The notes under the pieces were generated by a model. It was not told the DNA's origin. It saw only the letters and a program-made list of their open reading frames with translations, and did no database searches. Positions 35,653 through 64,000 of a stretch of 64,000 nt of DNA are shown here, in pieces. Every line of letters begins with the position of its first letter. The first letter of the stretch is position 1. The stretch lies in assembly GCA_044892525.1 (NCBI GenBank), contig CM097885.1:80104001-80168000 (forward strand), given 5' to 3'. Both the position numbers and the translations under genes were made by a program. The stretch comes from Schmidtea polychroa (Eukaryota).

Positions 35653-36517
35653 CATTTTTGTTGTATCTACTTTATCCACACTTTTGTCGAAGAAGTTTAA
35701 ATTTCAAATTAATTCTGTAAATTGACGCCAATTTTTGACGCCAATATAAGAAAAAGAGAGTAATGAAATCACCGGTCGCATGGGACTACCTCTGCACACT
35801 ATAATCGCCGAGTATTTCAATGGGTTTGTGGACTTCCGATAGAAGCCACATGGCCGACTTCAGTTTAGTCCCTCTTATTTTATACTCTAATGAAGCTAAC
35901 CTTGGGCAACCTGCTCCCCTATGACTTATTCCTCATGCTATTGTGTGAGTCGATATTGTTGCGGGTACACTCGGATGACCCCTTTCTAGTGCAGCTTTAG
36001 TCTAGAGGATGAATGCCCACCTCAATTTCGCCCGTCATTTATTTGGTCATCGCCGAGCGGGACCCGCACATAACCTACACTCCAACATAGCACCCGTGAA
36101 TTGCTTCACGTTGGAACTGTGCTATGCCGGCGAGACGCCAGTAAGCAGGTGAGCCAGCTCCTTCGGACTACTCCTTACTGAGGCCTCGACTTTCCAACCC
36201 TGACTGCCGATAGAAGGACTTACGTCTACTCATTCCGTCGCCCCATCGCAATGTTTCTAGCTGAGTTTGCCAACTGACTAATGCTCCTCATAATTTTGTG
36301 ACTCTCAATACCATTTATCAATTTCAACTCAACTGTCCTAAGATGAACATAAAAAACGTATACAGACAAAAATGGTTTATTATTAAGATTATCACACAAA
36401 TATATTTGACACCTATACAATAAAATTCACGACAACAGGAAAAGAGACAAAGGTAAAAATGTTATCAGACAATGTTCGGGTCATTTCAGTGAACGAAAAC
36501 CTTTTACGGAGAAGTTC

Positions 36518-37267
36518 TCATTTCTCCCACTCCGAGTCTGCCAATAGATCTTCCAAATCGAAAAATTCGGAGGCATTTTCCTCCCAGGTTACACCAGCGG
36601 CGGAGATGATTCGCCCTGAGATCACTGATGCTAGATCGATTGCTGCAGGAGGGTTGATGACTTTGATTGGATGATCCGACGACTTCCGGTTCTGTTTGGC
36701 GGTTACGCGTTCCCGCTGTTTCTTTTTGCGTTCGGCTCTCGATAATTGCCGACGCTTTGGCTTCGATGCCGTTTGATTGGTCGGGGGTGCTGCAGAGGTA
36801 GATGCCATCGCAGGTAGCACTTTACTGGTTCCGGTAAAGATGATTTCTGGTTCTTTAGGTGAGAGCTCGGTCTCTACGCACCCATGGCAGGACTTTCCGA
36901 CTGGAGCTGAAAACCCGCCAGAGATATCATGATGTGCTGGGAAAAGATTACTGGCTTCATTAATTGGGATCTTCGCGATCTTCCTTGTAGTTGCTGCCTG
37001 GACGTATAATTTGTGTAGCGCCTCCGACTGCTCTTTTATCAGGCTCCTCTGCGCCCGACTCTCCGAAATTAACGCGTCTCTACAGTGCTCGCTTCGGTGC
37101 AGCTTCTTCTGAGCCTCCTTCATCTGGGTGGGACTAAACCATGTCCCCTCTAACTCATCTATCCTTCTTTTGTGCTTTCCGATTTGGGCCTGGAGCTCTT
37201 TGATAATTGAATTCTTGTCGGAGCAAGAAAAACAAGGTCGAAGAACGGTCTTGGAATTTGGCAACAT
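36518..37267 (-). CDS. LTR-encoded 249-aa protein (CxxC x2, coiled coil, basic NLS-like segment, acidic tail); 3' LTR copy
   Basis: Intact ORF identical in both LTRs; preceded by a strong acceptor (rc TTTTTTTTATTTTTCTCCGCAG) 9 nt before the ATG. Confidence 0.7.
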   Translation of the reverse strand: MLPNSKTVLRPCFSCSDKNSIIKELQAQIGKHKRRIDELEGTWFSPTQMKEAQKKLHRSEHCRDALISESRAQRSLIKEQSEALHKLYVQAATTRKIAKIPINEASNLFPAHHDISGGFSAPVGKSCHGCVETELSPKEPEIIFTGTSKVLPAMASTSAAPPTNQTASKPKRRQLSRAERKKKQRERVTAKQNRKSSDHPIKVINPPAAIDLASVISGRIISAAGVTWEENASEFFDLEDLLADSEWEK

Positions 37268-39719
37268 TTTGAGTGACTGCGGAGAAAAATAAAAAAAAAT
37301 GAAAATAATTAGATCAACGGGAGTGTCACCATCTGACTACATTCATACTTTACTGATCATAGACAAAAATATGGGTTTACCAGTCAAGACAAGTCCTACT
37401 ACGCGATGGATTCTCGTACCCTTTCGGGGCTTTAATTATAAGAAGTTAAATCGATCAAACCAGATTTCGCACAAGGAAAAAGGAAGATATTACTATTTGT
37501 GAGAGGAATTCTAGGTCTATGAAAATGATTATTTATTTACTCCGCTTGGGGTCATTATTTCACGTTTACCGAGAATCGATTTAAATTGTCGACTTCTCCC
37601 CCCGTACGAGTGTTTTTAATGAGTGCATCATGTACTGGGGTCGAGTGACTATCTATGGAAAAGGGGTCCATAATGCCTGTTGATTAGTTCCTACAGGATA
37701 AACGGAAGGTTATTTAAATTTTTAATTGTCTATTCATTCTCTTTAATTACTCACATATGCGTTTTACCTGGTTTACATAATATTTATTTAACAATATTCG
37801 ATATTAATATTAATGATAACTATGTCAAAAAATGAAATAATTTCGGTGCCATTCATGCTAAGATAATAAAGGGAGAATAATCATAATTATGATCGAGGTT
37901 ATCATTAAAATTAGTGTCTTTATAACAACTGAGCACGGTATCAGTGTGAGCTAGTAGCCGACCATACCTGCTGGGTAGATAAGGTAATGTCAGCCCAGTG
38001 ATTGACTCTTAATCCGGAGCGGTAAAATCTGATACCTGTCGGTAGTTTAATTGGTTAATAGAAATTCCATCTGGTATGTTCGGTCTGATTTTACATGAGT
38101 AGAGACGGTGTGACTTTACCCACTACGCTTGGCTACTGTGTATGTCGGCAACTGGGTGACGCATGCAAGGTGCGTTTTCACACTCTTGATTATACCGATC
38201 GCTGGTAATGTAGGTCTTAAATGTTTGTATGCTGACATGTTCTCAGATTTTTATCTACTGCGTAATCACTCACAATTCTCCTGCGTATGGTGATGATTTA
38301 CTAATCCTCACCGGATTATTGGAAAAATTATAATTATCTATATTGCAAATGTTGGATACAGCTTGCTCCAAGGGTGGATTTTTCGTCTTTAATTCCTCGA
38401 ACATAGTTTATCGAGCTACTCTCTAAGTGCTGGAGGATTTCTACCTATCCCTACTGGATTGCCAGCCCTATGAAATACTGGAATTTTATATTTAATTAAC
38501 AAGATCATCGGTTAACTTGAAGAAATATATTTTTCTTGGCTCGAATTAGTTGCATTTTTCATTTTTAAATTATTTGATGCTAATAGTTCGTGTAATTATG
38601 ATAATTAATTATAGGTAAATCCTTTTATATAGAATTCTAAAAATTTATTATAGCAAATCATTTTATATAATTTAAACTCTTATTTGGAACGAACTCGTTT
38701 TATGCAATTCTAATAATTATCTGAAATAAATCATTTTACGTGGTTCTACAATCTATTCGTAAACAGTCATTTTAAGTAATCTTAATACTTATCTGAAGCA
38801 ATCTACTTTGAACTCCCTTGCAACTATGTCTTTAAGAGAACTTTTAGATGAACGGAATAATAGTTCTAAAGGTCATAGGCTAAAAATTGGTCGGAACAGA
38901 TTCTGAGTGAAAAGTATGAACATCGAAGATCTATCACATATAGCCCCACTAATGTCTGAACGATTATTTGACGCACAACTTACATCGATGATAGAGAAAA
39001 TTTGGCTTAGTAGAAACGATATTTGAAGACGATAGGGTGACACCCTCAATCACTGCGCGAATACCTAAGAATCCTCCGATTCATTTATTACATATCTTTG
39101 TTTTCAATCACTATATGACTATCAATTTTCTGCCACAATTTGCCTATAGATTTTGGTCGCACCTTCAGCGATTGGACCCGTGAAGAAGCCCTCACATTTC
39201 GGCCCAATCTAGCTGCGTGATTGAAATGAAATACCCTATGTCCACCGGTGGAGCTCCCGGAGGCACCTCACACCATGACATAGAGTATCTCAACGCCACG
39301 TTCCTCAAAAATTTAATTAACATAATAATAATTCGTAAAAATAATTCATCAAAGAAAAATCAATAATTCCTAGAAAGTAAATCATTTATTATTAAATAAC
39401 CAGATCATTAAATCAAATAACATGCTTGAAATCAAACGAAAAGAAAAGGTAAAATCTTTAAATTTAAATTATAATTAGATTATACCATTACTTATAAATT
39501 CAAAATAAGAAATCCAAAAATCCTTACCGAGTGTTTCAAATAGGCTGAGTCGAAACGTACTAAGTGGAATTGGTTAATACTAGAATCGATTATAGATTTA
39601 GATGAGGTTTCTTGAATCTTGGAATAGTCCTTGTGATGATCCTGTAAGTCAGTGTCTGTTGCTGTGAATCGCTAGTTCTATAGTAGTTGTTGGATTAACG
39701 GTAATGTTAATGAAAATAC

Positions 39720-39807
39720 ACTTACCTATAGCAGTTGTTGGATTAACGGTAATTATAATGATTTTAATGTCTGCTTATATATTAGTTTTCTATTTACGCG
39801 GACCAAT
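39720..39807 (-). promoter_or_regulatory. Putative LTR promoter and first splice donor
   Basis: rc TATATAAG at 39774-39781, CCAAT at 39803-39807, and rc AG|GTAAGT at 39720-39725. Confidence 0.45.
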
Positions 39808-40460
39808 CAGAATTGAATACCGCCTTATTTTATTAATTTAATTTATTTTCCTTGTTTTTGGGTTATTTCTTCCTATTTTCTTTATTAAAATTATGTTTTA
39901 TTTATTTTCCTTAATTTCCTTATTATCTAATATATTTTACGTTATTTTTCGTCATTCTATTGTCCTATTTTAATTTTTCTTATTTTTATATTTTTTTGTT
40001 TTAATTCCTATTTTCTAATTATTGTTTTTCTTATGTTCTATTCTATTTTGTTCGTAAATTTGTTTATTTTATTTCTTTATTTTACTTTAGTACATTTGAC
40101 CTAATCTCCCAGCTACCCTTCGGCTCAGCCCAACAAATCACTCGGGGACCCATCAAAATTGCGTCCCGCAATTGCATAGTTATCTTACTTCATGCATTCC
40201 TAAAAAGGATATATCGAAACAATTATACTACAATAACAAGAAAAATTTTTTATTCTAAGATATAGGTCAAATCAAGATCAAGCAAGTATCACTTAAGGTG
40301 ATAGTTTGTATATACAATAAAAGTTTCCACATATGATAACACAAATGTTTGAGTTAGAGTTTATGAACTGTTAACCATTTGATGCTTCTGCTGGCGGTTG
40401 TTGGTTGGTTTGGGTATTGATGTTGAGCTAGGTCTGACTGTTAGAATTTGGCTGGATTGG

Positions 40461-41030
40461 TTAGTTACTCGGGATTCGAGGTCGGAATGGGGTTGGGTTA
40501 AGATTTGTCAGTGGCACTTCTTGAGGATTTCTGTTCGAGGTTACTCTTATTGATGTCGAGATTCTACATCTATTTCTAACTTCGTAAATTTTCATGAGTA
40601 TTGGTAGACATAGGAGGAGGGTCTCTGCGATCACCACATATATGAGATAATGGGTGTCATTGATTTCGGGAGGTGTTTTTGGCTTTTCTACAAGATTTTC
40701 AAAATTCTCTTGTTGCATTTGTTGTTCCAACTGGTCGAATTGTTGGATTTGTTCGAGGATTTGTTTGTTTATCATTTTACAAATGGGATTCTTTTTACAC
40801 ATTGTTTGGATGTTGTTGATGTGTGATCGGGTTGATTGAATGGTTTGGATGATATGGGTTTTTACTGTCATAGGGTATGTGCATTGGCCGGATTCTTGTT
40901 TAGGTTCTTGATTTTGATTTCGGTAATCTCGTACGATTTTCGGTTGGGTGCTTACTTGTTTGCTCTCCATCAGAATCATCAATACCGTCATTGTTATCAT
41001 CATCTCGCCTCTCATGATACTATTATACAT
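40461..41030 (-). CDS. Accessory putative type I membrane protein, 189 aa
   Basis: N-terminal hydrophobic MMITMTVLMILM, three Cys, Q-rich helix, TM-like YLIYVVIAETLLLCLPILM. Confidence 0.6.
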   Translation of the reverse strand: MYNSIMRGEMMITMTVLMILMESKQVSTQPKIVRDYRNQNQEPKQESGQCTYPMTVKTHIIQTIQSTRSHINNIQTMCKKNPICKMINKQILEQIQQFDQLEQQMQQENFENLVEKPKTPPEINDTHYLIYVVIAETLLLCLPILMKIYEVRNRCRISTSIRVTSNRNPQEVPLTNLNPTPFRPRIPSN

Positions 41031-41949: not shown

Positions 41950-42588
41950 TTATACGAAGGTTTCCTCCTGTCCCACATAACCTTCATCACTATCGACCGC
42001 TGGATGCAACTGTATCGCAATAGGGTCATAGGGTAGGTAATATTGGGGGATTTGAGCTCTCAATTCATTAACTTCGTCTCTTAGAGCTCGAGTGATATTC
42101 AGCTCTTCGTCGAGCAGATAAGTGAGATACCTTGTTTCTTCGTCTTTCGCCTCTACTTGTCTATCTAAGGCCTTGATTTTCTCGTCGCCCTTCCATTTTT
42201 CAATTTCTATTTCCAAGTTTTTGATATTTTCGGTATACATTTTCCTCTCGTTTTCTAACTTTCTGTTTTTTCCCGCTAGGACCATGTTTCTTTGTTCTAA
42301 CGATCCTTGTAATCCATTAAGGTCTCTTTTCATCTCTTCGACCTGATTTACTAATTCCACAACCCGTCCTGCTTGCTGGGTTATCATCTCTTCCATTGCG
42401 GCATTCTCGTGCTCTCTTATGTCGCATTTTATTGCCAAATGTCGCTCAAACTCCATAGCCTTCATCTGCCATGTTTGGCTTCGGGCGGCGACCTTTTTCA
42501 ACCGTTTCAGTTCTTCCTTTATTATTAAATTTTCCTCCCATTTGCCCTGTTCGCTCTCATATCCGAGTCTCATGGGCAATTCTTTCAT
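41950..42588 (-). CDS. Accessory coiled-coil protein, 212 aa
   Basis: Heptad-rich ORF whose ATG overlaps the upstream stop (ATGA at 42585-42588). Confidence 0.65.
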   Translation of the reverse strand: MKELPMRLGYESEQGKWEENLIIKEELKRLKKVAARSQTWQMKAMEFERHLAIKCDIREHENAAMEEMITQQAGRVVELVNQVEEMKRDLNGLQGSLEQRNMVLAGKNRKLENERKMYTENIKNLEIEIEKWKGDEKIKALDRQVEAKDEETRYLTYLLDEELNITRALRDEVNELRAQIPQYYLPYDPIAIQLHPAVDSDEGYVGQEETFV

Positions 42589-43004
42589 CTCTTTTTCATT
42601 TCACTGTTTTGTCTTTTCCATTTTCTCGCTTCTGCTACTAAGTGCATCATTTTCCTTCCTTCTATTTGCTTTTCCGCTTCGCGCTTGGTGTTCTCATCGG
42701 TAAGTCTCTTTCTCGCTTCCTGCACTAGCTGCTTTAAGTAGTGGCTGTGCGCTTCTTGGCGGGTATTTTCTAGTGACGCCCATTTTGATGCTCTTTTGCA
42801 TGCTTCTGCTTCCGCTCTTAAGTTGTGTATTAACCATTGGTATTTACTATTCTCATCCTCTCTAGCTTCTTCGATGTGATTTCGGGTGAGATTAGTTAGT
42901 TGGAACATTACTTTGTTCCATTTTTTGTTATGTTCTCGGGGAATTTGTGTCTTGTTGACATTGGTTGGGGCTATCGCAGTTTCGGTTATTTTCTCTTGTG
43001 CCAT
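42585..43004 (-). CDS. Accessory helical protein, 139 aa
   Basis: Sense ORF with acceptor-like TTTAG 4 nt before the ATG; a homologous decayed sequence occurs in copy D near 200-300. Confidence 0.6.
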   Translation of the reverse strand: MAQEKITETAIAPTNVNKTQIPREHNKKWNKVMFQLTNLTRNHIEEAREDENSKYQWLIHNLRAEAEACKRASKWASLENTRQEAHSHYLKQLVQEARKRLTDENTKREAEKQIEGRKMMHLVAEARKWKRQNSEMKKR

Positions 43005-44671: not shown

Positions 44672-45031
44672 TTATGGTTCGGAAGAGTCGGCTTCGTGTC
44701 CGCTCTCCTCCCTATTCATTAGCCATTCTGACCAGTCTTCTATTTCTGTCTGTTCTGCTTCCTCCATCATTCTGTCTATTTCAATTTCCTGTCGACGGCT
44801 ATATTGGGTTATCCTCTCTATCTCTCTTTGCATTTGTTCGATTTTTAACCTCTGGTCTTCAATTATCTTCAAATAACTAAATCCTCTGTTCATACTCTCG
44901 ATTAGGTTTCTGTGCATCGTCAATCCTTGTTCTTGCAAATTGGACACTAATTGTGCTAATACGGCACATTGTTGCTTCCATAATTCTTCAGTTACTGTAT
45001 TGTAGTTCATTTCGTTATTTCCTTGATCCAT
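44672..45031 (-). CDS. Accessory small helical/acidic protein (about 119 aa from first ATG)
   Basis: Sense ORF between the polyprotein stop and TRAF; the ORF-track start at 45055 is TTG. Confidence 0.55.
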   Translation of the reverse strand: MDQGNNEMNYNTVTEELWKQQCAVLAQLVSNLQEQGLTMHRNLIESMNRGFSYLKIIEDQRLKIEQMQREIERITQYSRRQEIEIDRMMEEAEQTEIEDWSEWLMNREESGHEADSSEP

Positions 45032-52100: not shown

Positions 52101-55100
52101 CGGTTTTTCGTTTGGGTTTCTGTTTGGATATAAACATTTATCGTTCCCGTTATCATCGTCGTCACTATCGCTGTTAGATGATTGACTTCTGAATCGGTCC
52201 AAAAATTTTGGTTTATTCTTTTTCAATTGTCGCCTTGTTGCTTCATCGTACATTACTTTCCGGAATCGTCTGCCTACCTCCTCGTCGGTTCCTTTAATCT
52301 TTGTTAGTATTTTGATCAATCGCTTTATCCGATGAATGTCTTTTGAGTGACCATGTAATACCATGGTTTTAGCTAAAAATGGTAGAAAGCCTACTATCAT
52401 TTTCCAGTTAACTTTCTTTTCCCGCTTGTATATATCAAAACAAGCTAACATTTGTGTTAGTATTACTCTGACAATCTGAATTATGAGTATGATCCCCAAT
52501 ATTCCGGCCATCATTTGTCCAAAAACTAAGAATCTTCCCCACATGGCTTTCATCATGTTTGACGTAGCTTGTTGAAAATGGTCTGGCGATAATAGCAGCT
52601 CGTAATTCGGGCCTGATTGATAATTTGTTCCCCCAGTTATTGTAACCATATTTGACAAAATGGATTCTCGTCTGGCTGGGAAGAGTACGTTAAGTCGTGC
52701 TGTTTCTAGATCTTCTGGGGAATACATACCGCCGTTTGACACGTCTATAGGCTTGAAATCCAGCTCTGTGGCGAGTTCTATTAATCCAAATTTCTTGGGT
52801 TCCTCGGATATGGTTTTTCCCGGTAGCATCATCCATTTCCCATCGGGTCTTTCATATAAAGGTCCGTATGCATTAGAACAGTTAAAGAGATTTGGGTAGA
52901 AACCCACTGGATTCATAATTCTCGTGACTGGTTGGACGAATCGATTTTGTCCTTTATAACGGATTTCTAGTTCATTTGCACATCTCTTTTCGGGTAGTAT
53001 GGATTTTTCTGGCATTCGTGCATACGTCTTGGTACACTGGTATGTGTACATCACTTCTCCTACCATTCTACCAAAATGTCCGTCTGGTAATGGGAGTGAT
53101 GGCATCGTGTTATCTGGGTGCGTTATCGCAATAGCTAGCTTTGTTTTCAGTATTTCTTTATTCAATGAACAATCGTTTTGTATCAGATCGTAATATACTT
53201 TTTGTAAGGTCGTTTGTCCACGATGAAATAGAAAATCCATTTTATTATTTGCATATAAGTATAGTTTTACGTCCTCCGTTGCTATCTTTCCCACTGCTCT
53301 ATCGATTATTTGTCTCGACATATAGATACCAGCGTAATTGGTTTTATATACTATACTGTCGCACTTGGTGGTTTCTTTCTCTTTGATAAATCTCATACCT
53401 AGATCTGGATCGTCGGTAATTAATGCTGTTGGTGTTTTCTGCGTTGAGAGTCTTTTTTCTCTGGGAGATGGTGGCATTGGTTTTCCATTTCGCATTCTTA
53501 CTCTGTCGTTTCCATCCTCGTCGTTCTCGTTCTCATAAATTTCTCCTTTTACTTCATTGAACAAGGCACTTTTTAACAGTTGGAGTCGGCATTTTTGCGT
53601 GTTAGCTTCATAGATTATAGTTGATACTCCTGTCCTGCATACGTTTTCTGTAGCCCTACATGCCGGGTTGGTTTTCATTTGGTAATTATTTGCGTCAAAT
53701 TGCGCTTCGTATTCTTTTAATTCGACCGTATAGGACTCGATCACTACTTCTCCCGATATTACCTCGCCTCGGATCGTATACGTACCTCCGTTACATGACC
53801 CATCTGATGATTTTACTTTTCCGGATACGTAAACACTTTCGGTTTTAATCATTCCAGTTTGTCCGTGTATTGTCACTCCGTTATGCATTTTTAGCGCTCC
53901 GGTTCTAAATAGCTCTTTACAGTCCTCTCGTTGTATTGATACGATTTCTTTATCCAGACCGGGTAGTATAAGAGTCGAATACGAATATTGTCCACAGTAA
54001 TATGCGAGTACCTTTTTTGATACTACGCATTCCCTTGCTTGCGTTCTAATAAAATCTGATTCTTGGTATACATGGTAGGTAACCTTTGTTCTTACTATGT
54101 CTAATTTGTTGGGTGACGCTTGTCGGCATTCTTCTATGTCTCTCAATGAGTATTTATCTCTCATTATCATATTATCACAATCGTAGATGGTAAAACCCGT
54201 TGCTCCACTTGTGCACAACATCCATATCATCATAGTCATCATTAACGAATTTATCGATGCTTTTCTGCTTGCTGGGTCTTTCATGGGTAGTTCCCATTCT
54301 AGTTCATTCAACAACTTCTTCAATCTAACTTGCATCGACCTTTCTTGCTCATTTTTTCGTGGCGCTTGTATCAGTCTTTTCCATCCTCCGGCACGAATAA
54401 TATGTGGTTCAATAGTATTTTCTATGATTGAAATGGTCATTTCCACATGATTTGCAAACTGTTTATTTGGTATTTTCCTCGCAGCTAGTCCCATCAAATT
54501 ATACATCAAATACGTGATTACCACTAGATGATGTTCGTCATCATTTGCATTTGTCGTGAGCTGTTCAATCACTCTCTTTGTTTCATCCCAATCCGTTTTG
54601 GTGGTTTTCGTTTTCTTTTTGATTAACTTTGGGATTATCCCTGCTACGATGTGCCATAATTGTCTTGCTTCCACACTCGCTACTTTCCGTTGCCACAGAC
54701 GTCTAAGTTGTGGGTTTGTTATTATTAACATATCTTTGATCAATTCTCGTATCCATTTTTCTCCTCTTTCGATCGTTGGTTGAGCTTCTTTTAGATCCCA
54801 TACTATTTTATCTAACTTTTCCAATCGAACTTGCCCTTGTTCTTGCTTTAATTGTTCCTTGGTTTTTAACTCAGACTTTTCTCCTTGTTTCTTAGGTCTT
54901 CCTTTTGCCCGTTTTTCCATCATCGTTCCGGCTTCTCTGGTATTTTCATATTGCGGATTTCTTTCGTTATCCGTTCTGGGTAATGAACTATCGTTATTTC
55001 TCAGCCACTCATTCCATTCATCTATTATTTTATCGGTTTGACCTTCTGGTGATATTCTTGTTGGTTCTCTTTGTTTCTTGAATTGTTCATCCGTTTCGGT

Positions 55101-58100
55101 TTCCGTAGTATTGTCGATGATTTCTCCGATGTTTAATTTTGTTGGTTGTTGATAACTTGTTGATGGTTGGTTGTTAGTCCACATTTCGGCTCCTGTCGGC
55201 CATCTCACTAATAGCGGTGATCTTTCTCCTGGTTCATCGTCGCTATCTTCGAGGATAATCTCTTCGACTTCTTCAGTTTCATTAGATTTACTTGGTGCTT
55301 TGTTCGGACTCGGAGTACTCAAACTGCCTTTTGTTGGTTTATTAATTTTGCTTTTCCTTTTCAATGGTTTTCCCAACGTTTCCGCCATTGTTAACACATT
55401 CGTCTCTTCCAATCTCATGGGTGTTATTCCGACGTCTGCATTATCGTCTAGTAATTTTCCGAATAGTTGCAGCTGGAATGGAGTTTCATATGCTAATTTC
55501 TTTTTTAATTCTCTAATTTTTGTTGTTGGATGCACCTTTAGTTCTTCGGTGCTCTTGTCCGGATACTTGATTCGGATGTGATACCTCTCCTGGGTGTCTT
55601 GTGCCCATTCCTGATTTCTCCATTTCCTAATAATTTGTTCTAGCTGTTCTGGATACCATTCATTATATTGCCGGTATTCCTCTATTGCCTTTGCCATTCC
55701 TCTCAGATTGTGGATGTTCTCTGATGTCTTTAAGATGATATTAGCCAGCGCTACTACCTGGCGTTTTTGATTTTTCGCACCTATTGCTAAAATATCGCCT
55801 AATTGTTTATATCTTTCTTTCTCTTCTCGTTCTCTTGCTTCTGTCGCTTCCTCGCCGTCCATATCGGCATATTCACGTTCCTTTTTCCGCATTGCATGAA
55901 TATGTCTCGCTTCATTTTCGCTTTCTGACGTGACGTCCGTCTCGCTTTCGTCATCTGATGTCTGTCCCTTTGCTTCCTCTTCATATTCTGGAGGTCCCTC
56001 TTCTTCCTCCTCCGATTCACTTTCTGTCCCGCCAATGTCTGTTTCTACGACGATTCCTTTCCGGATTTCCCATTCCTTATTCTCTGCATTCCACACTCTT
56101 TCCCATGGGGTTCGTCTGCAGGATCTGGTACTTAGTTTCGTGATTTTTCCTTGTAGTTCTTTTTCTTTTAACCATTGTTGGTGAATTTCAATTATTTCTG
56201 TAGATTTTTGATATAACGTTTTCATCCGGTCTCGTATTTCTTTTTGATATGTTACGTCTCTTGTTCGAAATTCATCCATTGGTACTATCCTGATTATCTG
56301 ATGATCGTCCCACATACCCATTTCACTCAACGAGGTGTCGTCCTCCGCTCGTAATATTATTTTATCGTACATCATGACTACATCATCTACCATACCATCA
56401 CTACTTTCGCTACGTACCTTTTCCGTTATCTCTTGGTTTATCTTTGATACCAAATCATCCACTTTACTCTGATTGCTCATTTTTATTCGTCGTTTTTCTT
56501 CGTTCGGTAACCATATGGTTATTTCCAACCTCTGTGGCTGGGTTTCTTTTAACCTTCCATATTTGTGAATCAAATTTATGGTTCTCCAATCACTCATTCG
56601 GAGCAATTCTGTATCTCGCAACCGGCTCATTAGTTCGTACATGGCTGGGGCTCGTCTGGTGATGAGTAAATCCCAGTTGTCTTCCACTTGTTCTTGAATT
56701 TGTTTGATCAGCTTGTCCAGGTTTCGTCTCAGAGTACATTGTTTTATTTGTTCTAATTTCAATTTGATATTAAAATCGTATTCTGCCTTGGCATCTTTAG
56801 CCCATTCGTAAAGGTTGGCTGGTTGTTTTTCTTTGTGCAACTTTAGTATTTGCGTTTCTCCTGGCCATATCAGTGCGTCTACTAAGTGCATATCTGGTTT
56901 AATCTGTTCTCCTTGGTATTGATACAAATATTCTTTCTTTCTCGAACTTCCCAAATGTTCTCGTATCCAATCGAAAAGTTCGTCGGTGACTGTATTTTTA
57001 ATCCATATTCTTTCAAGTCCTCTACTCGTTCCGATTTTTATTACATACCGCGTGGTATCAGCCTGCTTCATTTTTTCCATATACTTTTTTATTATCAACT
57101 TTTCCTCGCTTGGTATTAAATCTTCCTTGTTTCTTTCCAATTTCATCACTTTTTGTACGAATCGCCTGAATGGTATTACATCGATGAACTCTTGGTTCCT
57201 CACTACTACTGGGAGTATTTCAGCTACTTGTTTTATCGCTTCCTCCCTCTCTTTTCTCAACTTTATTTCGATATCCTCGTCTTCACTTTCGCTGGTTATC
57301 TCGCTTTCGCCTTCTTCCTCTTTGATTTCCCCTTTTGGAGGTTCGCTTATTTCATTTAGCTGTAGCATTTCTCCACTCAAACTGCTCACATAGTCTTCGT
57401 CTGAGGACGACGTACTTTTTATCCTTTTCATCATGTTAATGTGCAAATTTCTCATCCTTGGTACTCGCTTTAGTTTCTTTCTTTCAAATATCGTTGTTTC
57501 TTCTGATTCTAATTCTTGTAGCATTTGGTGGTTTAGTTGACTGGTTTGTTCCTTGCTCTTGTTATTTTCATCTTCTGTCTCGGTTTTCGCTTTATTATGT
57601 TCTTTTTCGATTTTATCTTTTATCTTTTTCCAGAATATTTTCTGAATTCTCTGGTTTCCTTTTAAAATCGTGGTTGAATTCTCTGTTTTCATTTCCGTTG
57701 TTGTTTCTTTTACCTTTTCTGGTTCAGTCATGGGTACTACCCTTGGGTTTTTCCCGTAATTGTAGCAATACTGGCTCTTCATGTCTTTTACTAACTTCAT
57801 CATATTTATTCGCAATGGTTGTTCTTGTCGTTGTTGGTTGCGTTCTTGTTTTATCCTCTCTTCCTCGGCCTGTAGTCTTTGCCATTCTTGTACATGTTGA
57901 TGCACTTCATAATTGTTGAGATTTTCGGTACTCCTCATCATACGTATATTCTGGGTTTGTTGTGGTGCTGATTCTTGTCTTGGTCTCATCATTTGTTGCA
58001 TCATCTGTTTCATCTGCGAAATTTCCTGCATAACGTTCATTTGTTTTCCTTCGTTAGGGTTACTTTGTCGTTGCGGATTCGCTATATAATTATTATTTCG

Positions 58101-59081
58101 CTGTGGTGGTCGTTGTTGTTGACCCCTTTCTCGGCAATCTCTGGAGATGTGACCTGGCTGACCACAGTTAAAACAACCTCTCAATTGGCATACATTTTCG
58201 GTATGTCCACGCCGTCCGCAACGATTACAATTTGAATTTCTATAACAATCTCTGTCCCAGTGTCCTGGTTTACCACATGTTCGGCACTGCTTGTTATCGT
58301 TCATATTTCGTCGATTATTAAAATTGTTCTCATTATTCAGGTTGTTACGATTACCATTATTCCCATTTGATCGTCCTTGTGGTGGTTTGAAAATTTGATG
58401 CGCTCCTGGTATAAATTGATTCATTTTCGGTTCTTGATTGTTGTTATCTCTGTTATCCGCTTTCGCTATTGCTGTCGCTATCCTCCCATCCTCTTGCATA
58501 ATATTCATTTGTGCTGGAAGGTGGAGCTCGCATCTTGTAGCCCAATCTATGGCTTCTTCTAACGTTTTGCACATCTGACAGCCTACGGAGGCTCTTACCT
58601 CTTCTCTGCGTAATCCCTCTATGAAATAACCGATCAGATTTTCTTCTGGTAATTTCCCATTCATTGCTTTCTTTGCCAATCTCCGCAATTCGCTGGCATA
58701 TAACGTAATGGATTCATTTGCTCTTTGTTTCCTATTTGCTAGTTCGCCCAACGCCTGGTTGATTGGCTTACTGGCTCCGAAGGTTTTCTTCAGGAATGTT
58801 TTGATATCTTCCCATTTTTCTAATTTCGTATCTCTCTCTTTAGCTTCTAAATAAACTTCTAATGCGCTATCGCACAAAAACAACGGCATCCTTTTACTAA
58901 TTGCTTCGGGTGTCCATCCACACACAGTGATATAAACTTCAAAATTAGTTATGAACGTTGCTAACTTGTTTGCATTTCCGTTGAACGGTTCTCCTCGGAA
59001 CTTTTCTTTATACTCGTCGGTTTTTACGGCATTCGTCATGATTGGTGTTCTAGATTCGTCTGTTTCTTTTAAATTATCCAA
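45192..59081 (-). CDS. gag-env-pol: Giant polyprotein Gag-UBLx3-Bcl2-Env-PR-RT-RH-IN-Ankyrin-membrane protein (4629 aa from TTG; first ATG at 59039)
   Basis: Uninterrupted ORF; domain motifs are listed in the sub-features. Confidence 0.97.
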   Translation of the reverse strand: MDNLKETDESRTPIMTNAVKTDEYKEKFRGEPFNGNANKLATFITNFEVYITVCGWTPEAISKRMPLFLCDSALEVYLEAKERDTKLEKWEDIKTFLKKTFGASKPINQALGELANRKQRANESITLYASELRRLAKKAMNGKLPEENLIGYFIEGLRREEVRASVGCQMCKTLEEAIDWATRCELHLPAQMNIMQEDGRIATAIAKADNRDNNNQEPKMNQFIPGAHQIFKPPQGRSNGNNGNRNNLNNENNFNNRRNMNDNKQCRTCGKPGHWDRDCYRNSNCNRCGRRGHTENVCQLRGCFNCGQPGHISRDCRERGQQQRPPQRNNNYIANPQRQSNPNEGKQMNVMQEISQMKQMMQQMMRPRQESAPQQTQNIRMMRSTENLNNYEVHQHVQEWQRLQAEEERIKQERNQQRQEQPLRINMMKLVKDMKSQYCYNYGKNPRVVPMTEPEKVKETTTEMKTENSTTILKGNQRIQKIFWKKIKDKIEKEHNKAKTETEDENNKSKEQTSQLNHQMLQELESEETTIFERKKLKRVPRMRNLHINMMKRIKSTSSSDEDYVSSLSGEMLQLNEISEPPKGEIKEEEGESEITSESEDEDIEIKLRKEREEAIKQVAEILPVVVRNQEFIDVIPFRRFVQKVMKLERNKEDLIPSEEKLIIKKYMEKMKQADTTRYVIKIGTSRGLERIWIKNTVTDELFDWIREHLGSSRKKEYLYQYQGEQIKPDMHLVDALIWPGETQILKLHKEKQPANLYEWAKDAKAEYDFNIKLKLEQIKQCTLRRNLDKLIKQIQEQVEDNWDLLITRRAPAMYELMSRLRDTELLRMSDWRTINLIHKYGRLKETQPQRLEITIWLPNEEKRRIKMSNQSKVDDLVSKINQEITEKVRSESSDGMVDDVVMMYDKIILRAEDDTSLSEMGMWDDHQIIRIVPMDEFRTRDVTYQKEIRDRMKTLYQKSTEIIEIHQQWLKEKELQGKITKLSTRSCRRTPWERVWNAENKEWEIRKGIVVETDIGGTESESEEEEEGPPEYEEEAKGQTSDDESETDVTSESENEARHIHAMRKKEREYADMDGEEATEAREREEKERYKQLGDILAIGAKNQKRQVVALANIILKTSENIHNLRGMAKAIEEYRQYNEWYPEQLEQIIRKWRNQEWAQDTQERYHIRIKYPDKSTEELKVHPTTKIRELKKKLAYETPFQLQLFGKLLDDNADVGITPMRLEETNVLTMAETLGKPLKRKSKINKPTKGSLSTPSPNKAPSKSNETEEVEEIILEDSDDEPGERSPLLVRWPTGAEMWTNNQPSTSYQQPTKLNIGEIIDNTTETETDEQFKKQREPTRISPEGQTDKIIDEWNEWLRNNDSSLPRTDNERNPQYENTREAGTMMEKRAKGRPKKQGEKSELKTKEQLKQEQGQVRLEKLDKIVWDLKEAQPTIERGEKWIRELIKDMLIITNPQLRRLWQRKVASVEARQLWHIVAGIIPKLIKKKTKTTKTDWDETKRVIEQLTTNANDDEHHLVVITYLMYNLMGLAARKIPNKQFANHVEMTISIIENTIEPHIIRAGGWKRLIQAPRKNEQERSMQVRLKKLLNELEWELPMKDPASRKASINSLMMTMMIWMLCTSGATGFTIYDCDNMIMRDKYSLRDIEECRQASPNKLDIVRTKVTYHVYQESDFIRTQARECVVSKKVLAYYCGQYSYSTLILPGLDKEIVSIQREDCKELFRTGALKMHNGVTIHGQTGMIKTESVYVSGKVKSSDGSCNGGTYTIRGEVISGEVVIESYTVELKEYEAQFDANNYQMKTNPACRATENVCRTGVSTIIYEANTQKCRLQLLKSALFNEVKGEIYENENDEDGNDRVRMRNGKPMPPSPREKRLSTQKTPTALITDDPDLGMRFIKEKETTKCDSIVYKTNYAGIYMSRQIIDRAVGKIATEDVKLYLYANNKMDFLFHRGQTTLQKVYYDLIQNDCSLNKEILKTKLAIAITHPDNTMPSLPLPDGHFGRMVGEVMYTYQCTKTYARMPEKSILPEKRCANELEIRYKGQNRFVQPVTRIMNPVGFYPNLFNCSNAYGPLYERPDGKWMMLPGKTISEEPKKFGLIELATELDFKPIDVSNGGMYSPEDLETARLNVLFPARRESILSNMVTITGGTNYQSGPNYELLLSPDHFQQATSNMMKAMWGRFLVFGQMMAGILGIILIIQIVRVILTQMLACFDIYKREKKVNWKMIVGFLPFLAKTMVLHGHSKDIHRIKRLIKILTKIKGTDEEVGRRFRKVMYDEATRRQLKKNKPKFLDRFRSQSSNSDSDDDDNGNDKCLYPNRNPNEKPIETAPYWEKEKTNTWIANGSYIPPDIVGPQTALTMTQNMYPQLPSQPGMHYMPTRRTKSVDQADDVRTIAAMSLPGGPAVTVMIQINGKETNAMIDTGANVSAIAINQIPSKHWKDIESTTIHIIACSKETVDVVGRWWTTLRYQDNEIETYLAVIPKLSVPCIIGTDLMPELLKEVVIDLTTMCLKDKTSRICKMNAVIRCPEKIIVPAKSQMICQIKVDTGMEGEVIFEPSKSFEKRRELPLAREIITINQEGVIPLNITNFEEEDKIIYENERLGKLTPMINIELPKVTNEMTKDDELWTIDSTLLTDDEKRKLHRLLVEYKDIFAISDLDLGTCDVTLHAIPLIDETPIALRPYKLAEMQKEIAEAEVQKMLDAKVIEPSCSPWQFPVVMVKKKDGTQRFCIDYRKLNAVTKRDTYPLPDINEMLLTLQGAAYFTSLDLKSGYWQIKVKDEDKEKTAFTLGRDLYQFRKMPFGLTNAPASFQRCMNFVTHGIKQCMVYIDDLLIYSATFEQHLEDIRNVFIRLRQWKLKLKPSKCDWAKEKVTFLGHIVSAKGKEPDPRNIEKIKTCPAPKTVSQVQEFLGLCGYYRKFIKNYAGIAKPIQELVKKDISFIWGKEQQEAFETLRDKLIEAPILVHPDFKKPFLLATDASGYAAGAILGQLDDDGKERVIGYYSRTFKKHEKNYSVTEREALAIIQAIKHFRYLLWGHEICITTDHQPLVWLGQHKEASSRLMRWAMQLQEYSPFIKFKAGRANANADCMSRFIFPDLVDSEMQRICLIVAEDLDFCQLRKDQQEDVELKRIIDYVKTGKTEEYAKDQKLKEHMDKHRHRYIIEKDWLLIMDGEKRLMCVPENRRKDLLTQYHDGRLGGHMSSKKTLARMKQKYFWPTLTEDVSEWVKNCLTCATRKNTGSKWKAPLTPMPVPIEPMTMISMDVVGPLPESDKGNVYILVITDFLTKFPEAFAMPDQKAKTIAKILVEEICCRYGTPKQILTDQGTNFMSEIMSEVTNYFKIAKLRTSPYHPQTNGMTERFNGTLIQMLSNYVDRHQRDWDEYINLCLMAYRMSIHASTKMSPFKLMYGRECNMPMDLEYQPPISQYMEIDDYVTKFKERMQEIWETAGLNIKFYQESYKDLHDRKKNVKQHTFQTGDWVMIETPELIPGTTKKLQRNGKGPYEILFVGETNVRVKLVNNPFTRPIYVNVARCKSIPKTATSQPEGRTLTTRSQTYRMNMMQQLAEPTTGRLGIQPSEAEKIVKEVKIKIPGWAKDRLDFEILGGLLTMIENYANRERTHPLLRVVKSQWPILFTITDHYGDTPLHKLMKVGNNEQILETIEAFHDCKRSTEQENNQGYTPLMIAVNRGKTKDIITALLDTGSKITTQDHEQKNALHHAIEGKSTEAFTSLMELLSYEDNREVGNMYDGLLTAIKEKLTTITGILITWRNPFKNDYMINVNEAFTRGENTLMREAMKGHHLFEIPNQLLERGIKFTNHKDEQLAKKRIDTFEKSLFQFTNQVRNKYWETVSVLYMMDTMNTIRENYLDIIQILTAEERINNPNGKKTKIRYGKSREPKSTTNQTVTNNVIETKSMSIDQEAIIRKAKEVFFEEMLELSDEIILSKIIKAVHTYARDQTTGLDIGKIKTFLPRAFTMVTKDSRTPLQQAILAAKENRAITIMRILGDMGEETNTKNEQGETAMMYAAITKIHPKTLHILHQSGSRLDEKSNEGNSTMDWATIQPNLEMIRFICKNATKEEVENICKNTAQFQWNTVRKNLEAMKLLLTWRVPQSNKYAININEFYENGENAMVKNTLTKGGTPKIILIVLNREDLKFTQNQSEQQRIGKHRRIQLRELVKEWNRKRHAATGRKEFEFEAKLARNRVLTAYRRLLNDINVEDDILNDSGGDKHDDNDGKGRKEDKEKREPEEDKPKNKDSDTKREGNSPGTKTKEEEKPNNGKQRVCLPFTNKEIETNMILMIIMLTMIELVTAHGGTRTIKETKEAENQDGKMEELKQEKKKQAQEQQWDLKEEWDLKERCILGRCMSRAYQKLVLINEDTEPITEVRIQEAYRNRDGKRITNVKGKEVHLGKGGEVVITQLQPRKEHKVCISRLGPGERCHQYVTQQQPPKEYTVCIWRNESKRECRRYPGKRGKKRKNHDEKDEGGKHKKTGEEAQDNYVSEEEMEKIQKMAKEGMNEEIARIREMMKGNGKRGNEKSTEAISTLTNKEKPESISVKQMMWISGIIITGAFLIIMGGTIKIIKDKRHRGELEMTRIRNFQHRVKRPSDIKPEQWVEAWNAQRPPNSRI
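46700..48180 (-). other. Polyprotein domain: two ankyrin-repeat clusters
   Basis: GDTPLH, GYTPLMIAV, QKNALHHAI; RTPLQQAI, GETAMMYAA, GNSTMDWA; duplicated flank L.TWR.P..N.Y.IN.NE....GEN. Confidence 0.88.
48480..51870 (-). other. pol: Polyprotein domains: protease (about 51540-51870), RT (about 50300-51060), RNase H (about 49790-50170), integrase with GPY/F tail (about 48480-49510)
   Basis: AMIDTGANVSAI; PFGLTNAPASFQ; YIDD at 50587-50598; LATDASG; HHCC, MDVVGPLP, TDQGTNF, HPQTNGMTERFN, GPY. Confidence 0.97.
52350..54195 (-). other. env: Polyprotein domain: chuvirus/gB-type envelope glycoprotein
   Basis: IYDC..YSLRDIEEC; YYCGQYS; CSLNKEIL..ITHPD; GEVMYTYQC; CANELEIRY..FVQPVTRI; furin-like REKR near 53452-53463; TM near 52460-52545. 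Confidence 0.85.
54370..54760 (-). other. Polyprotein domain: Bcl-2-like
   Basis: BH2-like IENTIEPHIIRAGGWKRL preceded by amphipathic helices; same position as the Bcl-2-like domain of element A. Confidence 0.72.
55380..57057 (-). other. Polyprotein domains: three ubiquitin-like folds, each preceded by a helical segment
   Basis: UBL1 about 56830-57057 (LYQYQGEQIKPDMHLVD), UBL2 about 56280-56535 (MMYDKIILRAEDDTSLSEMGM), UBL3 about 55380-55590 (HPTTKIRELKKKL..LQLFGKLLDDN). Confidence 0.7.
58000..59039 (-). other. gag: Polyprotein domain: Gag capsid plus three CCHC knuckles
   Basis: MPLFLCDSALEVY, RKQRANESITLYASEL; CRTCGKPGHWDRDC, CNRCGRRGHTENVC, CFNCGQPGHISRDC (about 58135-58290). Confidence 0.93.
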
Positions 59082-60401: not shown

Positions 60402-60845
60402 CTTTACGACTGGCTGGCACTATTCAACAGCTCAATCTTCTTCCTTCTGATCGGTTGGGCTTTTCACAACTCGACCTTACGACTGGCTGGCACTATTCAA
60501 CAGCTCAATCTTCCTCCTTCTGATCGGTTGGACTATTCAACAACTCGATCTTACGACTGGCTGGCACTATTCAACAGCTCAATCTTCCTCTTTCTGATCG
60601 GTTGGACTATTCAACAACTCGATCTTACGACTGGCTGGCACTATTCAACAGCTCAATCTTCCTCCTTCTGATCGGTTGGACTATTCAACAACTCGATCTT
60701 ACGACTGGCTGGCACTATTCAACAGCTCAATCTTCCTCCTTCTGATCGGTTGGACTATTCAACAACTCGATCTTACGACTGGCTGGCACTATTCAACAGC
60801 CCAATCTTCCTCCTTCTGATCGGTTGGACTATTCAACAACTCGAT
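60402..60845. repeat. Tandem array of six 74-bp units in the leader of B
   Basis: Units start near 60402, 60476, 60550, 60624, 60698 and 60772 (CTTACGACTGGCTGGCACTATTCAACAGCTC...GGTTGGACTATTCAACAACTCGAT); degenerate half-units continue to about 60925. Confidence 0.95.
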
Positions 60846-61461
60846 CTTAATATCTCCGAACTGGCTGGACTTTTCACAGCTCAGTTTTCGTTTTCCTTGA
60901 CCGGCTGGACTATTCTACAGCTCGGCTTTAACATTCCTTACTCTGCATGCTTCTACTTCTCTTTTCTTCTTTTACTCAAGATTACCATTTTCTCTGTCTA
61001 CCTTTAATTTGTCGACTTAATCTTTACCGCTTGGGAGTGTTTTCCCCTTTCTCCCCTTGCTCACAACGCATTGGCATGGTGATCAGTCATGCCGTAGAAA
61101 CTTCTCATCATTTGCGATGGTACCCCGTCCTACGCTTCTCACTTAGGTTGATCGGTTATCCCCTCCCAATTGGTTTTATCGTAAGATAGAACGTACCGCC
61201 CTAAGGTGGCTCGGTTTGTACCCTTACGGCCTATATTGGGACTAATTCCACGTTAGTTCGGTTTTCTTTTCGTTTGATTCAAAACAAAAAAATTATAAAA
61301 TATAATTAAAAGCCATAATTACTCAGTTCACAACAAAAATTTATTCACCATAAAAAATAAAAATTAAAACTTTAATCCATTTTCACACATCAATTACACT
61401 TATTCTCATTCAATAGCCGTGTAAATTCAATGTTCATAGATGTTACTGTATCTTTCACTAT

Positions 61462-61947
61462 TCATTCACCATAATAGACCATATGAGTTTCTTTTATCTC
61501 GTGCTTACATATCGTGCATCTTTTTAGCTCGTTCCCGCATTCTTCGCAGTGACTGAGGTGTCCACACGGCAAAAACAGTACGCGAATAGGACGAAGTTTA
61601 CAAGCAAGGCAAGTTCGTAGTAGAGTCAGTTTTTCTTGTATTTTCCGCTCGATTGTATCTGATATGGTATTTAAGGGATCTTTTATACGTTGATAATCAA
61701 GATTTAATGCTGGGTGGTTCAATCTCTCTTGATACCATTGGTACACGGTTTCCGGGTTTACCTTCCCATCTGGGTGACTTAGTCCTGTGGCTAATAACAT
61801 GTGGTTGGGAACGGCTGGTGTTTGCCCGATTGCTTGGAGTAATATGATGTTAATTCTTTCTCTCTTTTGTGTCAGCGTTTTAAGGGAGTCATTCTCGATG
61901 TTTATGAAGTTGATTAGTTGTTGTATCTGGTCTACGAATTCCGTCAT
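61462..61947 (-). CDS. IAP/MDM2-type C-terminal RING protein, 161 aa, upstream of gag
   Basis: CLACKLRPIRVLFLPCGHLSHCEECGNELKRCTICKHEI at the extreme C-terminus; acceptor TTTTTTTTAATAG 2 nt before the ATG; no BIR motif. Confidence 0.85.
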   Translation of the reverse strand: MTEFVDQIQQLINFINIENDSLKTLTQKRERINIILLQAIGQTPAVPNHMLLATGLSHPDGKVNPETVYQWYQERLNHPALNLDYQRIKDPLNTISDTIERKIQEKLTLLRTCLACKLRPIRVLFLPCGHLSHCEECGNELKRCTICKHEIKETHMVYYGE

Positions 61948-62257
61948 GTCTATTAAAAAAAATGTTTCAATAATATATAACTAATTAGTGGTTGTTTCCT
62001 CAAACATTCTCTTTTTTTAACTCGTTATCATTATTTTACTTTTATCTTATTTCTCCATCATTAAATTTGCTTTATTTATATTTTTAATTTTATTATTTTC
62101 TATTCGTGATTTATAATAAGATTCGATAAGCATTAGCCAATTTGCCCTCGCTAACCCATTGAAATCACTAACCCCGGTAAGTTCACTCTATTCGACAGAA
62201 ATTTACTCAATAACATCCCTATCCAGTTTACACTAGTCAATAGAAATTTCAATCTAA

Positions 62258-62275
62258 ATCCCGGCTGAGCCCCCA
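62258..62275 (-). promoter_or_regulatory. Primer-binding site, tRNA-Pro-like
   Basis: rc TGGGGGCTCAGCCGGGAT, 7 nt after the LTR end. The + strand AAATCCCGGCTGAGCCCCCA resembles the tRNA-Pro 3' end as I recall it (AAATCCCGGACGAGCCCCCA). Confidence 0.85.
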
Positions 62276-62282
62276 AAAATTA

Positions 62283-64000
62283 TGTTGCGGGTACACTCGG
62301 ATGACCCCTTTCTAGTGCAGCTTTAGTCTAGAGGATGAATGCCCACCTCAATTTCGCCCGTCATTTATTTGGTCATCGCCGAGCGGGACCCGCACATAAC
62401 CTACACTCCAACATAGCACCCGTGAATTGCTTCACGTTGGAACTGTGCTATGCCGGCGAGACGCCAGTAAGCAGGTGAGCCAGCTCCTTCGGACTACTCC
62501 TTACTGAGGCCTCGACTTTCCAACCCTGACTGCCGATAGAAGGACTTACGTCTACTCATTCCGTCGCCCCATCGCAATGTTTCTAGCTGAGTTTGCCAAC
62601 TGACTAATGCTCCTCATAATTTTGTGACTCTCAATACCATTTACCAATTTCAACTCAACTGTCCTAAGATGAACATAAAAAACGTATACAGACAAAAATG
62701 GTTTATTATTAAGATTATCACACAAATATATTTGACACCTATACAATAAAATTCACGACAACAGGAAAAGAGACAAAGGTAAAAATGTTATCAGACAATG
62801 TTCGGGTCATTTCAGTGAACGAAAACCTTTTACGGAGAAGTTCTCATTTCTCCCACTCCGAGTCTGCCAATAGATCTTCCAAATCGAAAAATTCGGAGGC
62901 ATTTTCCTCCCAGGTTACACCAGCGGCGGAGATGATTCGCCCTGAGATCACTGATGCTAGATCGATTGCTGCAGGAGGGTTGATGACTTTGATTGGATGA
63001 TCCGACGACTTCCGGTTCTGTTTGGCGGTTACGCGTTCCCGCTGTTTCTTTTTGCGTTCGGCTCTCGATAATTGCCGACGCTTTGGCTTCGATGCCGTTT
63101 GATTGGTCGGGGGTGCTGCAGAGGTAGATGCCATCGCAGGTAGCACTTTACTGGTTCCGGTAAAGATGATTTCTGGTTCTTTAGGTGAGAGCTCGGTCTC
63201 TACGCACCCATGGCAGGACTTTCCGACTGGAGCTGAAAACCCGCCAGAGATATCATGATGTGCTGGGAAAAGATTACTGGCTTCATTAATTGGGATCTTC
63301 GCGATCTTCCTTGTAGTTGCTGCCTGGACGTATAATTTGTGTAGCGCCTCCGACTGCTCTTTTATCAGGCTCCTCTGCGCCCGACTCTCCGAAATTAACG
63401 CGTCTCTACAGTGCTCGCTTCGGTGCAGCTTCTTCTGAGCCTCCTTCATCTGGGTGGGACTAAACCATGTCCCCTCTAACTCATCTATCCTTCTTTTGTG
63501 CTTTCCGATTTGGGCCTGGAGCTCTTTGATAATTGAATTCTTGTCGGAGCAAGAAAAACAAGGTCGAAGAACGGTCTTGGAATTTGGCAACATTTTGAGT
63601 GACTGCGGAGAAAAATAAAAAAAAATGAAAATAATTAGATCAACGGGAGTGTCACCATCTGACTACATTCATACTTTACTGATCATAGACAAAAATATGG
63701 GTTTACCAGTCAAGACAAGTCCTACTACGCGATGGATTCTCGTACCCTTTCGGGGCTTTAATTATAAGAAGTTAAATCGATCAAACCAGATTTCGCACAA
63801 GGAAAAAGGAAGATATTACTATTTGTGAGAGGAATTCTAGGTCTATGAAAATGATTATTTATTTACTCCGCTTGGGGTCATTATTTCACGTTTACCGAGA
63901 ATCGATTTAAATTGTCGACTTCTCCCCCCGTACGAGTGTTTTTAATGAGTGCATCATGTACTGGGGTCGAGTGACTATCTATGGAAAAGGGGTCCATAAT
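62283..64000 (-). repeat. 5' LTR of B (partial)
   Basis: Near-identical to 35957-37674; I noticed one substitution (ttatca at about 36317 vs ttacca at about 62643). Confidence 0.95.
62844..63593 (-). CDS. LTR-encoded 249-aa protein; 5' LTR copy
   Basis: Translation is identical to 36518-37267. Confidence 0.7.
   Translation of the reverse strand: MLPNSKTVLRPCFSCSDKNSIIKELQAQIGKHKRRIDELEGTWFSPTQMKEAQKKLHRSEHCRDALISESRAQRSLIKEQSEALHKLYVQAATTRKIAKIPINEASNLFPAHHDISGGFSAPVGKSCHGCVETELSPKEPEIIFTGTSKVLPAMASTSAAPPTNQTASKPKRRQLSRAERKKKQRERVTAKQNRKSSDHPIKVINPPAAIDLASVISGRIISAAGVTWEENASEFFDLEDLLADSEWEK

Follow-up and report, generated by a model that had tools for sequence, protein, structure and literature searches.

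A young Burro-like retroelement of the planarian Schmidtea polychroa with death- and ubiquitin-type cargo under purifying selection

The planarian Burro/GYPSM1 elements are giant retroelements of more than 30 kb, with a first open reading frame (ORF1) of 4,873 amino acids (aa), an inventory of MATH_TRAF, BIR, ankyrin, BCL2-like, Ubi2/SUMO-like and dUTPase-like domains, and the first envelope gene (env) found in frame between gag and pol (PMC6431247, which also describes Jurka 2007 and Grohme 2018). Integrated Burro proviruses have been proposed to meddle with apoptosis and ubiquitination (PMC6431247). GAG-ENV-POL “errantiviruses” with an ENV of the herpes simplex virus (HSV)/gB type have been reported from Platyhelminthes, Nematoda and Bryozoa, including six S. 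mediterranea elements in supplement file 2 (PMC13524379). In S. mediterranea, BURRO1 is enriched in the intestine and silenced by the PIWI/piRNA pathway, and the derepression of transposons in neoblasts is minimal (PMC8532177). Here we analyse a window of 64,000 nucleotides (nt) of the S. polychroa genome (assembly GCA_044892525.1, contig CM097885.1, positions 80,104,001-80,168,000), most of a Burro-type element lying in its right-hand part. An original prediction, made from the letters of this window, had placed the novelty in the full domain inventory and the envelope; since both have been published (PMC6431247), as has the gB-type env order (PMC13524379), that novelty falls away, and earlier publications already contain this kind of element, its list of cargo, its envelope and the apoptosis hypothesis. 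Our additions, some of which older texts may cover, are evidence for purifying selection on the cargo, predicted Bcl-2 and gB-like folds, and a putative second membrane protein that ends the polyprotein.

The element is of the Ty3/gypsy type, with long terminal repeats (LTRs), lies on the minus strand and measures 30,505 bp in total. In a self-comparison of the window, 35957-37674 equals 62283-64000 with 1 mismatch; with the adjoining genome beyond the window included, the LTRs (35957-40135 and 62283-66461) are 4,179 bp each, differ at 4 positions (0.1%) and have the termini TGTTG...CAACA. The end predicted at 66461 proved exact, and the target duplication, predicted as GATAT, is the 4-bp ATAT. 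Target duplications of 4 bp also flank 8/9 other copies (the remaining one gave no clear call), whose LTR pairs, compared over short overlaps of only 230-380 bp, are 99-100% identical in seven cases and 95% in one, with no match in the last. The element is best explained as a recent insertion, from a family that goes on spreading in the planarian genome. Its features, with the ratio of non-synonymous to synonymous substitution (dN/dS) where it is most useful, are the following (window positions):

35957..40135, minus strand: 3' LTR, 4,179 bp, preceded on the plus strand by the ATAT target duplication
36518..37267, minus strand: 249-aa ORF within the LTR (second copy at 62844-63593), without Pfam family
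40461..41030, minus strand: 189-aa accessory ORF with a single predicted transmembrane segment
41072..41836, minus strand: accessory ORF, coiled-coil-like, 254 aa, dN/dS 0.14
41950..43004, minus strand: coiled-coil-like accessory gene, split here into ORFs of 139 and 212 aa
43198..44586, minus strand: complete TRAF of 462 aa, with RING, zinc-finger region, coiled coil and MATH, dN/dS 0.14-0.16
44672..45031, minus strand: accessory ORF, 119 aa, with a homolog at the same place in a sister family, dN/dS 0.12-0.16
45192..59039, minus strand: ORF1 polyprotein, 4,615 aa without interruption
45333..46193, minus strand: C-terminal module of ORF1 (aa 4283-4569), with a signal-like stretch followed by an ectodomain, which bears an FN3-like motif, and a transmembrane segment
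46860..48242, minus strand: ankyrin repeats in two clusters, dN/dS 0.13-0.15
48570..51857, minus strand: Pol, with protease (PR; DTG, aa 2409), reverse transcriptase (RT; YIDD, aa 2815), RNase H (RH) and integrase (IN) with a GPY motif
52425..54242, minus strand: envelope, in frame between gag and pol, with a hydrophobic N-terminus, a gB-like ectodomain and a transmembrane segment (aa 2176-2194)
54342..54809, minus strand: predicted Bcl-2-fold domain (aa about 1411-1566), dN/dS 0.05-0.09
55365..55592, minus strand: ubiquitin-like (Ubl) segment, the best supported of three candidates
near 56265-56543 and 56790-57044, minus strand: the other ubiquitin-like candidates
58110..59039, minus strand: Gag, with Retrotrans_gag and three CCHC zinc knuckles
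60404..60849, no strand assigned: tandem repeat in the leader, 74-bp unit, 6 copies
61462..61947, minus strand: RING ORF upstream of ORF1, 161 aa, with a C-terminal RING of the cIAP/XIAP type
62256..62275, minus strand: primer-binding site, separated by 7 nt from the 5' LTR, that can pair with the 3' end of host tRNA-Pro(TGG)
62283..64000, minus strand: 5' LTR, running past the window to 66461 and followed by ATAT

This architecture (a gypsy element of ~30 kb with long LTRs, an ORF1 within the range of 4,600-5,100 aa, env after a BCL2-like part, and TRAF, ankyrin and Ubl cargo) makes it almost certainly a Burro-type element, as predicted for a young, envelope-bearing copy; the likeness is one of architecture with PMC6431247, and because BIR is missing we speak of a Burro-like family, not of Burro1/GYPSM1 itself. 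The claim that the copy is intact holds for ORF1, TRAF and the RING ORF. It fails for the accessory gene at 41950-43004, which in other copies is a single ORF of 335-369 aa (16/20) or is read in frame across the junction and ends early (3/20), one further copy lacking the region. Beside the 3' LTR no clear polypurine tract was seen. The tRNA-Pro(TGG) that serves as the element's primer tRNA also forms a tandem array with a 475-bp period near 130.90 Mb of G000:C1 (L166), and its pattern has 1,577 matches genome-wide.

Evidence that the cargo matters comes from the comparison of copies. A first look at the genome gave 935 candidates for the Bcl region, a figure that is not a copy number; of the 150 that were scored, 64 sit within frames that stay open for 4,700 codons or more. 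We drew 20 copies, or 24 in the case of the RING ORF, from best-match lists and compared all pairs of them domain by domain, with gaps and stops skipped and an 80% coverage filter that 15-21 of 21 rows passed (25/25 for RING). Across up to 21 copies in two subfamilies, dN/dS was 0.07 for env (0.02-0.07 over all comparisons), 0.05 for the Bcl region, 0.05-0.06 for Ubl, 0.13 for ankyrin and 0.16 for TRAF; it was 0.02-0.03 for Pol (RT-RH 0.02, IN 0.03, PR 0.03), 0.15 for the C-terminus of ORF1, 0.18 for the RING ORF (0.09-0.35) and 0.10-0.21 for the other accessory ORFs except that of 189 aa, the fastest-evolving (0.43), which is 203-224 aa long in most other copies. Similar values were obtained from the close subfamily alone (15-16 copies, five divergent or incomplete ones omitted). 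By contrast, control stretches of non-coding LTR and leader, treated as if they were codons, gave 0.60-1.07 (5/10 and 25/25 rows), and the 249-aa LTR ORF gave 0.18 in frame (6/10 rows) against 1.25-1.63 in shifted frames. For the cargo, dN/dS comes to 0.05-0.18 and no bootstrap upper bound exceeds 0.35; its gene order persists between subfamilies whose TRAFs are 71% identical. These ratios show purifying selection acting on the element lineage, not drift: a value near 1, named in advance as the outcome that would speak for unexpressed, decaying cargo, was not what we found. Since the death- and ubiquitin-type cargo is constrained nearly as strongly as the envelope, it is likely functional. Four sequencing runs guessed to be RNA were inspected over 40400-59400; one covers 30/30 bins and may be DNA, and one covers nothing.

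For the Bcl-like part of ORF1 a Bcl-2 fold is supported by structure prediction. An AlphaFold2 (AF2) model built on an alignment of 12 element-borne rows (predicted local distance difference test, pLDDT, 70) retrieved with VIA only Bcl-2 family members in the top 35 rows, the best with Z 13.4 and a root-mean-square deviation (rmsd) of 2.7 over 137 aligned residues, and the first unrelated row reached only Z 6.1. The region is 25% identical over 136 residues (two-sequence E 9e-6) to the same region of a broken Burro-type element in the window, which itself scores with the Pfam Bcl-2 model (E 4e-4), and in a third family of the genome a Bcl-2-scoring domain lies directly before env. The broken element (18176-24955, plus strand) is a distant one, with gag, CCHC, Bcl-2, env and protease in five ORF pieces and an env region 33% identical to ORF1, and is enclosed by inverted 699-bp blocks (16939-17637 and 26241-26938) that are 99.7% identical. 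Upstream of the Bcl-like part, one ubiquitin-like segment matches Pfam ubiquitin at E 9.8e-4, under the Pfam cut-off, and a second does so weakly (E 0.06), the third candidate being without support.

In a Pfam scan of ORF1, Gag, env (PF24664), protease, RT, RNase H, integrase and ankyrin were matched. The ankyrin repeats find generic ankyrin proteins as best PDB matches, with Bcl-3 at row 27 of 29, and so do not look specifically IkB-like. Between PR and RT, where a dUTPase-like part is expected of Burro/GYPSM1, a segment of ~125 aa is constrained (dN/dS 0.08) and has no Pfam or PDB-sequence match. A candidate protease-site motif, picked after viewing the sequence, occurs 5 times against a shuffle mean of 1.4 (6/500 shuffles reach 5); a second candidate pattern was not enriched over shuffles.

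The envelope matches PF24664 at E 4e-69 and has 933 relatives at E<=0.001, gag-env-pol polyproteins first and then free glycoproteins of ~650 aa. Its model (90-row alignment, pLDDT 87.5) matches herpesvirus gB in Foldseek (E 5e-14, TM about 0.37) and in VIA (Z 9.9, rmsd 10.1, 429 aligned residues), which suggests a class III fusogen. Among its metagenome relatives, three (P0155, P0001 and P0002) carry a gB-type env before pol and several extra aspartyl-protease domains, P0155 also with ankyrin and C2H2 fingers; another gag-env-pol-type polyprotein, HBK71150.1 (P0008), is annotated as a protein of a Flavobacteriaceae bacterium metagenome-assembled genome and is probably animal DNA in a bacterial bin.

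ORF1 ends in what is probably a second type I membrane protein. All of the distinct long relatives that we inspected (5/5) share this ending with two hydrophobic stretches, and so do two further families of the genome. A profile of six of these ectodomains, cut around the motif already noticed, matched the FN3 domains of Tie2, with E 6e-9 as the sum over its repeats, and those of fibronectin at E 1e-3, whereas the five in-genome rows alone reached fibronectin at E 0.3-0.5. With 0/6 members matching Pfam fn3, and with Atlas and single-sequence PDB searches blank, the presence of an FN3 domain is a reading that we favour with some reserve. Neither this membrane protein nor selection on the cargo was found in the literature searched, and Grohme 2018 with its supplement may cover them.

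The accessory genes complete the picture. Downstream of ORF1 they follow in the order 119, 462 (TRAF), 139+212, 254 and 189 aa. The TRAF ORF matches TRAF1/2/3 structures at E about 1e-27, and in a tree of 27 rows the TRAFs borne by elements group together in one clade (99/99), separately from the main cluster of host sequences (100/99). The rows were a part of 150 scored MATH matches, five family copies and the window copy; as the tree is unrooted, with weak deep support and no clade test, we name no donor. The RING ORF is closest to cIAP2, cIAP1 and XIAP (E 1.4e-10), and an ORF of 160-186 aa stands in its place in 20/24 other copies. Of the predicted inventory, then, TRAF, ankyrin, env, RING, one Ubl and, by predicted fold, Bcl-2 are retained.

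We propose that the cargo is selfish, delaying the death of the somatic cell that expresses the element and damping TRAF-dependent signalling in it, and would give this reading a probability of about 0.55-0.6. The family has a complete replication set: LTRs, a tRNA-Pro primer site, the 4-bp target duplication, complete enzymes and a gB-like envelope. ORF1 would be translated into a single chain, which its own protease and the host's signal peptidase would then cleave. The Gag, ubiquitin-like, Bcl-2, Pol and ankyrin products would stay in the cytosol, and the envelope and C-terminal module would be inserted into the membrane; the hydrophobic N-terminus of env, ~40 residues past the Bcl-2 domain, could act as a Bcl-2 tail anchor. 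The Bcl-2 fold, the TRAF and the RING ligase would then keep the cell alive, with TRAF-dependent stress or immune signalling blunted until copies or particles have been made and passed on. That other Burro-type families of this genome have a Bcl-2-like domain right before env, or TRAF together with a BIR-RING IAP, counts in favour of selfish cargo.

Several points weigh against it. When the Bcl region was searched alone by sequence (Pfam, PDB sequences, Atlas, longer homologs) no match was found, and of the BH1 (NWGR) and BH2 motifs that mark the Bcl-2 family it keeps only a BH2-like GGW, NWGR being absent. In Foldseek, Bcl-xL and BAK rank first at E 0.02, with nothing at E<=0.001, and the fold test is partly circular because 8/12 rows of the alignment came via the Bcl-2 Pfam model. 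BIR had no Pfam match in the nine ORFs scanned, and neither its motif nor a tblastn match turned up in the six-frame translation of the window, so the RING ORF is not a complete IAP. The copies compared, coming from best-match lists, lean towards intact ones, and constraint extends to the acidic ORF1 linker (aa 1230-1400; dN/dS 0.09), so that low dN/dS within ORF1 singles out no one domain. In S. mediterranea, RNAi of BURRO1 left the smedwi-2 RNAi phenotype unchanged (PMC8532177). The roles we assign to the cargo are, finally, read from genes, sequence and predicted folds.

The most probable of the alternatives is that the cargo works for the life cycle of the element itself, in processing the polyprotein, in budding that depends on ubiquitin or in membrane sorting, instead of acting against the death or immune pathways of the host. 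The Ubl, Bcl-fold and ankyrin parts do sit inside the Gag-Env-Pol chain, the Bcl fold lacks NWGR and the RING lacks BIR, and late-domain ubiquitination is established in retroviral budding. We nevertheless consider a life-cycle role unlikely, since the cargo includes signalling proteins that are not known to have a role in assembly, namely TRAF at full length and, beside it in the sister family, a full BIR-RING IAP; moreover, the gag-env-pol relatives from metagenomes, mostly partial, have no TRAF or BIR in Pfam scans. That sister family (L170, G000:C1:21546000-21555000; L144) has many copies with a Burro1/GYPSM1-like layout, in which MATH lies within a frame of 4,791 codons and is followed by the homolog of the 119-aa ORF, TRAF and the BIR-RING IAP. 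A degenerate, internally deleted Burro-type copy at 451-3930 (minus strand), in which an RT-RH-IN piece adjoins a TRAF MATH piece, is 73-80% identical to it in DNA.

A benefit to the host, by which the element would protect stem cells or aid regeneration, is far less probable still. Survival-type genes under purifying selection would suit it, as would the expanded and expressed TRAFs of planarians (PMC6109357); against this, constraint across many dispersed young copies fits selection on transposition and not one domesticated locus, and the element TRAFs stand apart from the main host cluster, if with weak deep support. The stem-cell protection suggested by the original prediction also fits poorly with a BURRO1 that is piRNA-silenced and intestine-enriched, neoblast derepression being minimal (PMC8532177). 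Cargo as passively captured host DNA in neutral decay, for which one could cite the accessory ORF split here and the stops or frameshifts in some copies, is rejected on the dN/dS values, their bootstrap bounds and controls, and the gene order kept between subfamilies.

Beyond selfish cargo in the general sense lies a more speculative possibility, which we regard as rather doubtful: an infectious retrovirus-like agent, with the gB-like fusogen and a C-terminal FN3/stalk attachment protein at its surface and a tail-anchored BH3-binding Bcl-2 that, with TRAF and RING, would keep infected gut cells alive. If true, this would be host control in the style of large DNA viruses, exerted by a retroelement; and if the cargo suppresses host cell death at all, it would be a clear case of retroelement counter-defences like those of large DNA viruses. 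Selection on the cargo also bears on a question left open by PMC6431247, and the family, with its dozens of young copies whose reading frames are complete, lives in an animal amenable to RNAi.

Element-borne TRAF, BIR and Bcl-2-like genes may, besides, inflate the counts of these families in planarian annotations. A first look at the genome gave 1,551 MATH, 909 Bcl-2 and 309 BIR candidates; many of those scored recur at an identical frame length, and the ones that were fetched are located in elements. Host-type Bcl-2 and host MATH/TRAF exon clusters lie apart from element copies, at G000:C4 89.95-90.83 Mb (Bcl-2, 7 matches) and G000:C2 105-124 Mb (MATH/TRAF). The rest of the window holds a single-ORF host gene at 9333-12107 (plus strand), of 924 aa and TopBP1-like, with several BRCT domains; Tc5/DDE_1 transposase fragments at 14899-16340 (plus strand); a small degenerate gypsy element at 27746-31484 (minus strand), with CCHC, RT and RNase H pieces and short direct repeats at both ends; and, immediately to the left of the element (34407-35656), two copies of a 543-bp block, 99.8% identical, on either side of a near-palindrome of ~390 bp.

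Among described systems, Burro1-4/GYPSM1 of S. mediterranea are the closest in design. They share with our element a length of ~30 kb, the giant ORF1, Gag with three CCHC knuckles, Ubl, BCL2-like and env parts in frame ahead of PR-RT-RH-IN, ankyrins, TRAF/MATH, coiled-coil (Smc-like) parts and tandem repeats; they differ in that our element has no MATH in ORF1 and no BIR, its IAP-type RING being a separate upstream ORF. The Burro-like element of Dugesia tigrina also has an ORF1 without MATH and a TRAF/MATH accessory ORF, but that ORF lies upstream there and downstream here, and its CCHC knuckles are two instead of three (PMC6431247). The gB-type errantiviruses share the gene order, the predicted gB-like class III envelope fold, LTRs and primer site; the portions of PMC13524379 examined make no mention of Burro or of cargo, and its S. 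mediterranea entries list no primer tRNA where our element uses tRNA-Pro. By eye, one env stretch printed in a row of its supplement resembles ORF1.

The remaining comparison is with viruses that carry Bcl-2-like proteins. The predicted fold of the element domain resembles A179L of African swine fever virus (Z 13.2) and BHRF1 of Epstein-Barr virus (Z 11.6), although identity to viral Bcl-2 proteins, that of Kaposi's sarcoma-associated herpesvirus included, is only ~10-13% and the element domain sits in a retroelement polyprotein. The poxvirus NF-kB inhibitors match more weakly (A52 Z 8.7, N1 8.4, A46 7.5, B14 6.5), which places the model nearer to BH3-binding Bcl-2 proteins. This makes the NF-kB targeting that had been predicted uncertain, as does the report of seven highly divergent Rel-homology genes in S. 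mediterranea with no clear NF-kB identified among them, alongside TRAF genes induced in a TBK1-dependent manner (PMC13563047); our own Rel-homology search of the genome was blank, as was its control, and is uninformative. In the predicted fold of its Bcl-like domain, the element would stand closer to BH3-binding Bcl-2 proteins than to the NF-kB inhibitors of poxviruses.

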